Shown in pieces: positions 15,674 to 18,047 of a stretch of DNA of 64,000 bases (its first letter is position 1; each line of letters opens with the position of its first letter). The position numbers and the translations under genes were made by a program. The notes beneath the pieces are model-generated. The model ran no database searches. It was not told the DNA's origin and saw nothing but the letters and a program-made list of their open reading frames with translations. This stretch comes from Acidimicrobiia bacterium (lineage in GTDB: Bacteria > Actinomycetota > Acidimicrobiia > Spongiisociales > Spongiisociaceae): contig JBFGLM010000004.1 of NCBI GenBank assembly GCA_041576165.1, positions 1 through 64,000 on the forward strand, read 5' to 3'.

Positions 15674-16276
15674 CTAGATCTCGTCGAGGAGTTTGCGCTT
15701 CTTCGCCTCGAACTCTTGGTCGGTGAGCACGCCATCCCGCCACAGGCGAGCCAGCTTCTCGATCTCATCGGCCTTCGACAACGGTGCTCCGCCTTCGATG
15801 GCGAGCAACCGCGATTCGCGATACTGGTAGATGAGCGCCTGTGTCTCCTCCGGACTGGGGATGTCGGCATACCGGCTCTGGCCGCCCTCACCCGCCGACT
15901 CGATGATCAGATCGCCGGACCGCAGTATCCGTTCACCGACGGTCTGCGAATAGGAGACGTTGTCGATGCGCTCCAGCGGGATCTCTTTGCCCCGGCGGGC
16001 GATCACGCCCTCCCGGATGATCAGGCGCTCGTTGGTGATGATGTACTTCGTGAACAACCACGAGACCCACTGCCGGGCGCCAACGAACAGCCCGGCGAGG
16101 AGGGCCAAGCCGGCTCCGATGAGCCGAACGGTGCCCTCGAGTGTCGTGAGCAGGACCACCGCCACGACAAGTCCCACGATGAAGGCGACGATCGGGATGA
16201 TCAGCACCTTCCAATGCGGACGAAACTCGGTCTCGACCCGTTCACCGGGGCTGAGCAGTCGTTCCGGATACGCCAT
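15674..16276 (-). CDS. Membrane-anchored bacterial PH-domain protein with C-terminal SHOCT domain
   Basis: Two TMs, YIITNERLIIREG...RILRSGDLIIESAG, LARLWRDGVLTDQEFEAKKRKLL. Confidence 0.9.
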   Translation of the reverse strand: MAYPERLLSPGERVETEFRPHWKVLIIPIVAFIVGLVVAVVLLTTLEGTVRLIGAGLALLAGLFVGARQWVSWLFTKYIITNERLIIREGVIARRGKEIPLERIDNVSYSQTVGERILRSGDLIIESAGEGGQSRYADIPSPEETQALIYQYRESRLLAIEGGAPLSKADEIEKLARLWRDGVLTDQEFEAKKRKLLDEI

Positions 16277-16368
16277 GGGCGGATGATAGGCCAGGCGGCA
16301 TTCGCCGGCGCCGGCCACAGGGCGCCGTTCTTGGCTCAAAAACCATGGGCCACCGGCCATCGTTGAAA

Positions 16369-16442
16369 CGCGAAAACAATCATTGGCTCGCGAAAACGAA
16401 CCAACGCTGTCGTTTGCCCGGGTAAAGACGCGGTCGTAACGT
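16369..16442 (+). promoter_or_regulatory. Promoter of putative ncRNA-1 with upstream tandem CGCGAAAAC motifs
   Basis: CGCGAAAAC at 16369 and 16389; -35 TTGCCC 16414-16419, 17-bp spacer, -10 TAACGT 16437-16442. Confidence 0.7.
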
Positions 16443-16449
16443 GCCGCTC

Positions 16450-16855
16450 GCCGCATAGAGGAGACTCTCAGCGGTGCCTCGGAAACGAGGCAGGCAACCG
16501 GACGGAGACGAACGGTTGCCGAACCCGGACGGTGCTTCGGCACGGGACGGGAGCTCGGAGGTCGCGGATTCGTCCGTGAGCAATGAGTACGGCAGGCAGT
16601 GGGCCTCGCTCACCAGCCGCCGTCTCGGCGCCGGCTGCGGCTGGCGTGGAGAATTGCTCGGACCGGGTTTCGGCCCGGAGCGAGCGAACCGGTGTCGCCG
16701 GCGCTTCGGCGACGGTGGCAGCGGACAGAAGCGGTTGAGAAGGCGCTTCGCACGTCTCGGACGGAGACCGGCCTTCGGGTCGGGTCGCCGAAAGGGACAC
16801 TGAAACCCCGAGAGGGTGCTGACTTCGGTTCGTACTCGCTCGGGGTTTCGCTATG
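16450..16855 (+). ncRNA. Putative structured ncRNA-1 (~405 nt, hairpin chain, GGA-rich)
   Basis: About 11 consecutive stem-loops, 7 TTCG loop-position tetramers plus GAGA/GAAA loops, promoter upstream, terminal hairpin 16802-16849; no credible ORF. Confidence 0.75.
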
Positions 16856-16858
16856 TGC
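16802..16858 (+). terminator. 3'-terminal hairpin/terminator of ncRNA-1
   Basis: GAAACCCCGAG...TTCG...CTCGGGGTTTC followed by GCTATGT. Confidence 0.6.
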
Positions 16859-16939
16859 GTTGCGGTGCAGCTGTAGCCATAGCCACAGCCGCGTCTGGCC
16901 ACAGCTGGGGAGCAATAGAGCGGGGAACGGAACAGCCCC

Positions 16940-17103
16940 AAACGCGGAAAATCCCGAGGGAGTTCTGGCCGAAACCATCACCCTCTCGGGACTTCCACAC
17001 CCTGCAGGTGCTCCAGTGCCCGAAGGTACTGTTCCCCCTGCGGGGCTTCCAGGCCGACCTCTCGGTCTGCCCTTCCCTGCCCCGGGTCACCCCGGTGCAG
17101 TAC
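16940..17103 (-). ncRNA. Putative structured ncRNA-2 (~165 nt, hairpin chain with GGA linkers)
   Basis: Minus strand CCGGG-GTGA-CCCGG, GACC-GAGA-GGTC, CCCC-GCAG-GGGG, CAGTACC-TTCG-GGCACTG, CACCT-GCAG-GGTG, terminal hairpin 16996-16946. Confidence 0.72.
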
Positions 17104-17108
17104 GTGGC

Positions 17109-17183
17109 AATGTAGAACGCTGGCGCCTGCGTGACAACCCCAAACCGCACCTTTGTTTTCGCGTCCTAGCAAAAGATTTCGCG
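17109..17183 (-). promoter_or_regulatory. Promoter of putative ncRNA-2 with upstream tandem CGCGAAA(T/A)C motifs
   Basis: Minus strand CGCGAAATC (17183-17175), CGCGAAAAC (17163-17155), -35 TTGTCA (17137-17132), 17-bp spacer, -10 TACATT (17114-17109). Confidence 0.72.
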
Positions 17184-17214
17184 ATACCGGCGGGGCCGCC
17201 GCAATCGCTGCGAA

Positions 17215-17236
17215 TGTCACAGCCTCCCCGTATAGT
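17215..17236 (+). promoter_or_regulatory. PafBC/RecA-NDp-like DNA-damage promoter
   Basis: TGTCAC-N10-TATAGT, 7 nt before the ATG. Confidence 0.6.
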
Positions 17237-17243
17237 TACACGC

Positions 17244-18047
17244 ATGTCATTGGACACGTTGTCGCCGAGCCGGGCATCGGATTTCAAGCTCTGCCCGCAG
17301 CTGTTCAAGTTCCGGGCCATCGACCGGCTGCCGGAGCCGACCACTGTCTATCAGGCTCGCGGCACGACGGCACACCTGGCGCTCGAGTGGCTGTTCGATC
17401 TGCCTCCCGATCAGCGCCGGCCCGAAGTCCTATACGACCTCTTCCGCAAGGCGTGGACGCAGCTGCGGGGCGACGAGCAGTTCGCCGAGCTGTTTGCGTC
17501 GACTGATGATGAGCGGGAGTGGGGTGTGGAGAGCATGCAAGTACTCGCCAACTACTTCGCGCTGGAAAACCCGGCCGGTGTCGTGCCGGTGGACCGGGAG
17601 CTCGACATGATGGAGGAGGTCGGACAGCTGACGATCCGGGGAATTCTCGACCGCATCGACGAAAACGGGGACGGGGAGCTGGTCATAACCGACTACAAGA
17701 CCGGCAAGGCCCCACCGGAGCGTTATGCGCTCGGTGCCTTCTTCGCCTTGAAGATATATGCGTTGCTCATCCGCAACCGAATGGGCCGTACCCCCCGCCA
17801 GCTGCGCCTCCTGTACCTCGGGAATTCGGTGATGTATCAGATCCGGGTGGACGACGCCCAACTCGATGCCATGGAGCGGCAGCTGTCAGCCTTGTGGTCC
17901 GCCATCAACCGTGCCATCGAGGAACAGCGCTTTCCCCCCCGCCCCTCCCGGCTGTGCAACTGGTGCTCGTTTCAGTCTCGCTGCCCGGCCTTCACCGCCG
18001 AGGCCCCCGGCGGCCCCGAGCAGCTGCGGCTCGCCGCTACCGGTTAG
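17244..18047 (+). CDS. RecB-family PD-(D/E)XK nuclease
   Basis: LSPSRASDFKLCP, RGILDRID...DYKTG, CNWCSFQSRCP (four Cys); real start 17244, not 16599. Confidence 0.92.
   Translation: MSLDTLSPSRASDFKLCPQLFKFRAIDRLPEPTTVYQARGTTAHLALEWLFDLPPDQRRPEVLYDLFRKAWTQLRGDEQFAELFASTDDEREWGVESMQVLANYFALENPAGVVPVDRELDMMEEVGQLTIRGILDRIDENGDGELVITDYKTGKAPPERYALGAFFALKIYALLIRNRMGRTPRQLRLLYLGNSVMYQIRVDDAQLDAMERQLSALWSAINRAIEEQRFPPRPSRLCNWCSFQSRCPAFTAEAPGGPEQLRLAATG

Follow-up and report, generated by a model that had tools for sequence, protein, structure and literature searches.

A predicted hairpin-chain small RNA gene and its family in an uncultured order of Acidimicrobiia

Small RNAs (sRNAs) can be encoded as side-by-side paralogues, as in the cases of Qrr, PrrF1/2 and OmrA/B, which have a common regulator-binding promoter module and their own terminators, and which act by base pairing via conserved single-stranded seeds. 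A comparable layout marks the family of the segment at positions 16449-16853 (+ strand) of the DNA analysed here, a stretch of 64,000 nucleotides (nt) from an Acidimicrobiia bacterium (positions 1 to 64,000 of contig JBFGLM010000004.1, assembly GCA_041576165.1), which is called the window from here on. We think, with a probability of about 70%, that this segment, the + unit, is an independently transcribed non-coding sRNA gene of a family not yet described, which occurs generally within a single uncultured order of Acidimicrobiia. It is very likely that the region is a real gene for a non-coding RNA (ncRNA) of ~400 bases formed by a chain of hairpins. The likeness to Qrr, PrrF1/2 and OmrA/B lies in the repeated adjacent units, the common promoter module and the 3' hairpin that each unit has of its own. 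In contrast to them, about 70% of the bases are paired, the linkers between hairpins measure 0-4 nt and there is no conserved seed; for these reasons base pairing with targets is an unlikely mode of action.

The CsrB, RsmY and RsmZ RNAs give another parallel, with many stem-loops, a variable body that separates the terminator from a conserved activating element upstream, and several paralogues per genome. By analogy, the hairpin-chain RNA may work as a protein sponge of the same kind. However, the loops of those RNAs bear GGA, whereas GNRA and UNCG tetraloops account for 585 of 780 here; each hairpin-chain RNA has one invariant site, the 3' hairpin, and is not obviously multivalent; and the upstream element is a direct repeat common to dnaA, dnaB and nrdJ. 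Ms1 (MTS2823 / scr3559) and 6S RNA resemble the + unit as genes of putatively stable, abundant-type sRNAs of a few hundred nt, here in an actinobacterial lineage without recognizable 6S. Ms1, moreover, is likewise conserved by synteny more than by sequence. According to PMC9130861, it has hairpins at both its 5' and 3' ends. The differences are that the predicted fold of the + unit lacks the rod and central bubble, that its flanks are a bPH_2 gene and a PD-(D/E)XK nuclease gene instead of the HAD-IB hydrolase and oxidoreductase genes of Ms1, and that a locus of the hairpin-chain family holds several units, whose bodies measure 111-688 nt. The synteny gene of Ms1 (the HAD-IB hydrolase, 'inhibition of morphological differentiation') has no counterpart here, no HAD family being matched by the 36 open reading frames (ORFs) scanned in window 149-38228. 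No Rfam family match pointing to Ms1 was obtained at an expect value (E) of up to 10, the presence of an Ms1 model in Rfam being stated in PMC9130861, in whose main text the string 'Acidimicrobi' does not occur. The CoRP RNA of Corynebacterium is also a long, lineage-restricted structured RNA outside the 6S and Ms1 families; its description in PMC11077062 (516 nt, between tRNA genes, cleaved into two fragments) sets it apart from the + unit by its neighbours and its cleavage. CoRP thus illustrates that an actinobacterial lineage can have an abundant RNA class of its own. That source proposes a single type of abundant polymerase-associating RNA for each bacterial species, and its authors expect further lineage-specific polymerase-binding RNAs. 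The hairpin-chain RNAs are a new family and not a member of a known one, CoRP having been compared by description only.

The features of the + unit are the following.

16369 to 16395, + strand: pair of direct CGCGAAA boxes (16369-16375, 16389-16395) that start 20 nt from each other and belong to a 19-nt direct repeat (D2)
16414 to 16442, + strand: predicted sigma-70-type promoter, TTGCCC (16414-16419), 17 nt, TAACGT (16437-16442), found with the family regular expression
16449 to 16853, + strand: hairpin-chain sRNA of ~401-405 nt with 12 consecutive hairpins, from the fold, the family model and an RNA-library contig
16449 to 16476, + strand: two-tier 5' hairpin capped by GAGA, from the predicted first base, found with the family 5' hairpin pattern
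16798 to 16856, + strand: conserved family 3' hairpin, terminator-like, then a short U run (covariance model R1, 57.1 bits, E 1.9e-13)

A preliminary description of this segment had claimed a + strand ncRNA of ~405 nt, selected for its RNA structure and made of UUCG and GNRA hairpins with tandem-GA internal loops. The check by strand-wise RNAfold z-scores that it proposed gives a minimum free energy (MFE) of -244.3 kcal/mol for the + strand of 16450-16855 (z = -10.15), with none of 100 dinucleotide shuffles equally stable, versus -177.8 kcal/mol (z = -3.37) for the - strand; the structure is thus beyond what shuffled controls reach. The centroid is near-identical to the MFE structure, and in both of them the ends of the RNA are joined by a 2-bp closing contact only, the 12 hairpins being otherwise local and independent. 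All ten hairpin strings that had been quoted are found at their expected places. The hairpin chain itself stands, since 10 of the 12 MFE loops are capped by UUCG (six) or GNRA (GAGA three times and GAAA once), while the tandem-GA part is only partly right: read from the sequence, the 2x2 internal loops are GA/AA and GA/AG, that is, G opposite A or G, and differ from the canonical sheared 5'GA/5'GA form, which is kept in the 3' hairpin of the family and is degenerate here. TTCG occurs nine times in 406 nt versus 1.98 expected from the window-wide rate (312/64,000); the seven positions first given (16536, 16569, 16669, 16705, 16747, 16774 and 16824) are all correct, two further ones lie at 16829 and 16847, and the one at 16747 sits within a stem rather than a loop. 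When the 5.1-Mb assembly was scanned in 400-nt windows for UUCG- or GNRA-capped hairpins with a perfect stem of 4 bp or more, 16401-16800 (+) came out as the top window of the genome, with 6 hairpins versus a mean of ~0.18. The sole other window with 5 such hairpins is an unrelated tandem repeat on contig C145, where an array of a ~36-nt G-rich unit lies downstream of a coding region (~2170-2470, + coordinates). The DNA libraries yielded short contigs; a variant in one of them (run X9), G to C at 16783, would disrupt a predicted pair, and nothing is concluded from it.

Besides the fold, there is a hint of expression. A 268-nt metatranscriptome contig from another study is 100% identical to 16482-16746 and lies wholly within the predicted RNA. 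The lack of RNA-library cover over the flanking genes was not counted as evidence. The limits of the + unit follow from its predicted promoter, which would place the start of transcription near 16449, and from the 3' hairpin, ending at ~16850; these limits are almost exactly those of the preliminary description. Box 2 is separated from the -35 element TTGCCC by 18 nt, and the box pair at 16369 is the unique match of the genome in one pattern search, the reversed-pattern control giving 0. The promoter of the + unit scores below 9 of 12 in a generic promoter scanner, which for that reason omitted it.

Support for the gene also comes from its relatives. Up to 5 kb upstream of the nuclease gene were taken from 51 relatives, which makes 52 regions together with the window, and 48 of these 52 nuclease-upstream regions of the order contain one box pair or more. 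Synteny of the bPH_2/nuclease spacer extends across 11 sampled families; in families f7, f8 and f11, no bPH_2 gene was found within up to 5 kb upstream of the nuclease. The family promoter consists of two CGCGAAA boxes 20-21 bp apart, 18 bp, TTGnnn, 17-18 bp and TAnnnT; the distance from box 2 to the -35 element is exactly 18 nt in 70 of the 74 units with a recognizable promoter. Within the order, 71 of the 76 genomes other than the source have this box-promoter pattern, versus 7 of 224 other Acidimicrobiia, and the reversed pattern has 4 matches in 301 genomes. Nearly all box pairs (80 of 82) lie opposite to the nuclease strand, the only inverted units being the + unit at 16449-16853 and one in genome G048. 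Units are duplicated in tandem, with several copies per genome. The tallies of nuclease, box-promoter and 6S genomes include the unpublished genomes G028, G039, G264 and G305, none of which is the sole support of a result.

At the other end of the unit, an alignment of 51 sequences of the 3' hairpin has 8 of 17 pairs invariant and 6 of 17 with compensatory changes. The invariant core is CCCGAG / CUCGGG plus GGG / CUC, with the covariation in the flanking pairs; the hairpin also has an unpaired A, usually a tandem GA motif, a UUCG cap and then a short U run. R1, the covariance model of this hairpin, is found in 35 of 36 genomes of the order versus 10 of 114 others, the latter weakly, and scores ~70 bits on the sense strand versus ~30 bits on the antisense strand. 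The source genome has two R1 matches, both in this spacer. The + unit has the defining traits of the family: the box pair and promoter (16369-16442), the R1 3' hairpin, the 5' hairpin with a UUCG/GNRA body, and the location in the spacer. In other families of Acidimicrobiia, loci L284 (G129) and L285 (G084) hold hairpin-chain RNAs with a similar 3' hairpin and weak R1 matches, without CGCGAAA boxes; since these RNAs lack the boxes, the RNA type may predate the promoter module. The copy in L284 has a cluster of DnaA-box-like sequences next to it and is located upstream of a gene read as a luciferase-like oxidoreductase.

When a unit is defined as a promoter paired with the next 3' hairpin, there are 95 distinct units of 111-688 nt, the + unit measuring 401 nt. 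Their MFE structures hold 780 hairpins, of which 665 are closed by tetraloops (312 GNRA and 273 UNCG), versus GNRA or UNCG in 7 of 689 hairpins of the antisense strands. This asymmetry over the family, together with that of the z-scores, bears out selection on the structure of the + strand RNA. All 95 units are more stable in sense than in antisense, with a median z of -4.9 versus -2.8 in 18 randomly drawn cluster representatives, and 77 of the 95 have a 5' hairpin within 8 nt of the predicted start (modal length 26-28 nt). The bodies are not alignable across the family, and the words enriched in them (6- to 8-mers) are tetraloop tips only, with no conserved seed. Homologues of the + unit were looked for with BLASTN in 41 relatives, with sensitive BLASTN in all fetched loci and with protein-anchored scans of genome and metagenome contigs, in which the best nuclease identity was 72-74%. 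All of these searches gave relatives only for the promoter and the last ~130 nt; close homologues of the 16450-16800 body, from which covariation of its hairpins could be read, were not found.

A coding function was examined as well. The ORFs that overlap the spacer have a flat G+C content over codon positions (0.61-0.79), in comparison with values of 0.41-0.49 at the second (GC2) and 0.76-0.83 at the third position (GC3) in five neighbouring genes. Long ORFs overlap the RNA region on both strands; six ORFs overlapping the region have no Pfam match, and their tblastn matches are confined to the short conserved hairpin. The non-coding reading of the preliminary description agrees with the flat codon-position signal and the lack of Pfam matches. 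With regard to known RNAs, Rfam 15 gives 0 matches in the whole window at the gathering score, and at E up to 10 only chance plant or animal microRNA and leader matches, far below cut-offs, in 16200-17300. 6S RNA (RF00013) is found neither in the window, at the gathering score or at E up to 10, nor in the whole genome, nor in any of 41 genomes of the order. A BLAST search of the spacer against the genome returns the self-match only, so that the spacer is single-copy and not a dispersed repeat of the repetitive extragenic palindrome (REP) or miniature inverted-repeat transposable element (MITE) kind. A replication origin (oriC) was considered and rejected: there are 10 DnaA-box matches in the window versus 8.2 expected, unclustered near the locus, and no turn of the GC skew. 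Among the matches listed in keyword searches of the literature, none was relevant to ncRNA of Acidimicrobiia, to UUCG/GNRA sRNAs in Actinobacteria, to the CGCGAAA box motif or to direct-repeat regulators of dnaA and nrdJ.

The spacer measures 967 nt and lies between a - strand bPH_2 + SHOCT gene and a + strand PD-(D/E)XK nuclease gene. It also contains a second member of the family, the - unit.

16947 to 17102, - strand: second, convergent family member of 156 nt, short class (promoter-to-3' hairpin unit, fold)
16941 to 16999, - strand: 3' hairpin of the - unit, canonical tandem GA around a UUCG-capped stem (R1 69.6 bits, E 2.8e-17)
17109 to 17137, - strand: promoter of the - unit, TTGTCA, 17 nt, TACATT (generic promoter scanner)
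17157 to 17183, - strand: two CGCGAAA boxes of the - unit (17183-17177 and 17163-17157; motif scan)
15674 to 16276, - strand: gene of a bPH_2 + SHOCT membrane protein (Pfam PF03703 6.9e-20, PF09851)
17244 to 18047, + strand: gene of a PD-(D/E)XK (RecB/Cas4-like) nuclease, the synteny anchor (Pfam PF12705 5.2e-36)

The promoter of the - unit is the only promoter-like site that the scanner reports in 16200-17300 (shuffle mean 0.1), and the 156-nt unit is the part of the spacer best conserved across the order by BLAST. Its 3' hairpin is an inverted near-copy of that of the + unit, forming the inverted repeat I1 with 16802-16848; the two hairpins face each other, ~90 nt apart. Both flanking genes have a -10-like hexamer just ahead of their start codon, read from the sequence: TATCAT 6 nt ahead of the ATG of the bPH_2-SHOCT gene (window 16277-16300) and TATAGT 7 nt ahead of that of the nuclease gene (window 17225-17246). 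Such positions suggest leaderless mRNAs. The nuclease gene is present in 59 of 61 genomes of the order.

The box pair is not limited to sRNA units. The source genome has three exact pairs, two in this spacer and one upstream of nrdJ. When one mismatch is allowed, four more appear, that is, seven in total versus two in the reversed-pattern control; one of the four precedes dnaA, while for the remaining three no downstream gene is named and chance is a possible explanation.

C138:735-783, - strand: exact box pair upstream of nrdJ (class II ribonucleotide reductase)
C7:~3381, - strand: box pair with one mismatch upstream of dnaA, the identity of dnaA being read from its N-terminus

Twenty further box pairs, none of them in the nuclease-upstream spacers described above, were collected from genomes of the order other than the source, and the downstream gene was named by Pfam. 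It is a class II ribonucleotide reductase in 10 cases, DnaA in 3 and DnaB in 2; there are further sRNA units in 3 (2 of them beside a bPH_2-SHOCT gene), an inositol-phosphate synthase behind a small ORF in 1 and an RcpC-like gene in 1. Four complete genomes of the order have 2-5 pairs each, one of them upstream of dnaA, and a genus of another order with a 1-Mb genome has a box pair likewise upstream of dnaA. Overall, the loci with a box pair comprise 10 of nrdJ, 9 of dnaA (two in another order) and 2 of dnaB (L180-L199, L282-L283 and L290-L295). Because box pairs precede nrdJ, dnaA and dnaB, the predicted sRNA genes share a rare cis element with genes of replication initiation, of the helicase and of deoxynucleoside triphosphate (dNTP) supply. 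The distribution suggests that the box pair marks a small replication and dNTP regulon of one putative factor.

Some details of the box-driven genes deserve mention. The leaders of nrdJ and dnaB that are driven by boxes often start with C-rich motifs of the CUUCCCC type. Pairing of CUUCCCC with the GGGGAAG of some sRNAs was considered and discarded, since GGGGAAG is absent from the + unit and shows no enrichment other than that of GGAA tetraloops. In loci L180-L185, L189 and L193, the stretch from the box promoter to nrdJ holds a putative second promoter overlapped by palindromes that we take to be NrdR-box-like, and also paired TGTGGACAA-type sequences, which presumably are DnaA-box-like. The ORF behind the box pair of L197 was read as PadR-like, Pfam naming only the next gene, inositol-1-phosphate synthase. 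The ribonucleotide reductase behind a box pair of G329 (L196:315-1700) carries a Hint (intein) domain.

A family unit is thus composed of the predicted promoter module, the 5' hairpin, a fast-evolving body of tetraloop hairpins like beads on a string, and the 3' hairpin with its invariant core. In the scheme that we favour, the putative box-binding factor would set the level of the RNA and co-regulate replication initiation, the replicative helicase and dNTP supply; the RNA would end at the 3' hairpin and build up as a nuclease-resistant stable RNA, in which the hairpin chain would be stabilizing bulk or an extra binding surface of low specificity. We propose tentatively, at somewhat below even odds, that it acts in trans through a protein that recognizes the invariant 3' hairpin, the chain of hairpins providing nuclease resistance and bulk. 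Recognition by a protein is proposed because the 3' hairpin alone is under sequence constraint, in its invariant helix, its unpaired A and its GA motif. A more ambitious proposal, which we consider unlikely, is that the RNAs are the output arm of a replication-control circuit, in which one factor would act at the boxes of dnaA, dnaB, nrdJ and the sRNAs, and the 3' hairpin would bind the polymerase, that same factor or another replication protein. If this were true, growth state would be coupled to replication initiation, and the RNAs could be a fourth polymerase-binding class beside 6S, Ms1 and CoRP.

The family could also be the functional counterpart of 6S, Ms1 or CoRP in this lineage, an abundant RNA that would bind RNA polymerase, as core or holoenzyme, and tune its free pool with growth state; we see this role as an improbable one. 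The absence of RF00013 from the source genome and from all 41 genomes of the order, and a promoter common to growth- and replication-linked genes, would fit this analogy; moreover, polymerase-associating RNAs can be long and unrelated in sequence, as CoRP is in the account given by PMC11077062, and 'PH' is among the flanking-gene words of Ms1 in Table 3 of PMC9130861, a bPH_2 gene flanking the locus here. Nevertheless, the predicted fold is a local hairpin chain without a long rod or central bubble, no Rfam family is matched at E up to 10, the 36 window ORFs scanned include no HAD-IB hydrolase, genomes carry the family in several copies, and a body that varies in sequence and length (111-688 nt) would be odd for a polymerase mimic. 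The 'PH' link itself was followed to loci L142-L179, 38 more distant nuclease homologues (L149 being a member of the order), and dropped: only two of them, both outside the order, have a bPH_2 gene next to the nuclease gene, and their short spacers are of another type. In one locus of Acidimicrobiia outside the order (L155:2215-2500), the bPH_2/nuclease spacer consists of ~60-nt tandem repeats rich in CCACGTGG-like palindromes and not of sRNA units. Little credence, in turn, can be given to a locus that acts at the DNA level, as extra titration sites for the box-binding factor or as a strongly transcribed insulator between the bPH_2 and nuclease genes, with an RNA that has no trans function and hairpins that make the by-product inert and terminate it. 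This would account for the tandem duplication of units, and for the fact that the promoter module and the terminator-like hairpin are best conserved and the bodies turn over freely; with 2-5 box pairs per genome, the 2-6 boxes here would also be a large share of the sites. It leaves aside the selection on the RNA strand, that is, 75% of extra-stable tetraloops in sense versus 1% in antisense and the 5' hairpin of 77/95 units, as well as the covariation of the 3' hairpin, with its strand-specific UUCG cap and its ~70 versus ~30 bits; besides, RNAs as long as 150-690 nt would be superfluous in a pure decoy.

We regard it as very improbable that the segment is a cis-acting leader or attenuator, a long structured 5' region that would control read-through into the bPH_2-SHOCT gene or the nuclease gene, even if, with a bPH_2 gene adjacent, the units precede it in the same direction in 80 of 82 cases (see also L186 and L194). 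In the window the + unit is directed away from the bPH_2 gene, towards the convergent unit that lies ahead of the nuclease gene; each unit comes with a promoter and a strong 3' hairpin of its own; both flanking genes have the -10-like hexamers described above; families f7, f8 and f11 have no bPH_2 gene in the up to 5 kb fetched upstream; and no riboswitch or leader family is matched in Rfam. A riboswitch, leader or attenuator was rejected on the grounds of that lack of an Rfam match, the facing units and the unit's own 3' hairpin. Finally, we find it hardly credible that the segment is a chance product of a GC-rich spacer, a dispersed repeat (REP- or MITE-like) or an unrecognized coding gene. 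The G+C content of the genome is 65%, the antisense strand reaches z = -3.4 and long ORFs overlap on both strands, as one would expect in such a case, but the + strand z of -10.15 is matched by 0/100 shuffles, the sequence is single-copy with its 3' hairpin at this locus only, synteny extends over 11 sampled families, and the ORFs have neither a codon-position signal nor a Pfam match, with tblastn limited to the short conserved hairpin.

Several points count against an sRNA gene acting in trans and have to be weighed with the above. The promoter of the + unit is a consensus prediction, with weaker -35 and -10 elements than those of the - unit. The ends and the strand of the transcript are predicted and not read-mapped, while the metatranscriptome contig has a depth of 2.9 and no strand information, DNA carry-over being possible. 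GC-rich DNA folds well regardless, as the antisense z of -3.4 indicates; 10 of the 12 predicted hairpins are supported by thermodynamics alone, without covariation, and the body from 16450 to ~16717 has no detectable homologue in the loci of the genome and metagenome collections. The core of the 3' hairpin could be invariant because it is recognized as DNA, or by the termination machinery, and not because of a trans partner. The partner protein and the box-binding factor, both putative, are hypothetical. Moreover, the assembly, contigs C7 and C138 included, may mix two organisms of the same order; a second organism is conceivable because contamination is estimated at 7.5% and the nuclease of the window is closer to other families, with 73% identity to a genome of family f7 versus 58-64% to the nominal family f1.

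Although seawater, sediments, soils and sponges all harbour abundant Acidimicrobiia, no member of this order is in culture and, to our knowledge, none of its regulatory RNAs has been described. Being found in almost all sampled genomes, the family would be a core part of the regulation of the order, and it would be a concrete candidate for the abundant RNA that is 'missing' where an actinobacterial lineage lacks 6S or Ms1. We think that the CGCGAAA box pair could serve as a defined DNA motif for fishing out a regulator of replication genes. Bodies that keep only many extra-stable tetraloop hairpins amid turnover of their sequence would represent an unusual mode of RNA evolution, and the hairpin-chain architecture might be useful for training RNA gene finders.

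The order is placed among uncultured Acidimicrobiia, outside Acidimicrobiales, and one of its families is Candidatus Spongiisociaceae. The source assembly measures 5.1 Mb and has 65% G+C. The 49-nt box-promoter string of contig C138 is identical to one on a contig of G329 (family f2). Some minor observations concern neighbouring genes. In family f11, an ORF read as a sigma factor of the extracytoplasmic function (ECF) type lies directly beyond a long sRNA unit (L084, G034), ~830-1380 nt upstream of the nuclease start and on the - strand. Upstream of the sRNA array, families f7 and f8 encode small proteins in tandem that share a 'YEAVEF' motif. In the window itself, four ORFs of 100-113 amino acids between 26203 and 28304 have a coding-like GC3 and no Pfam match.

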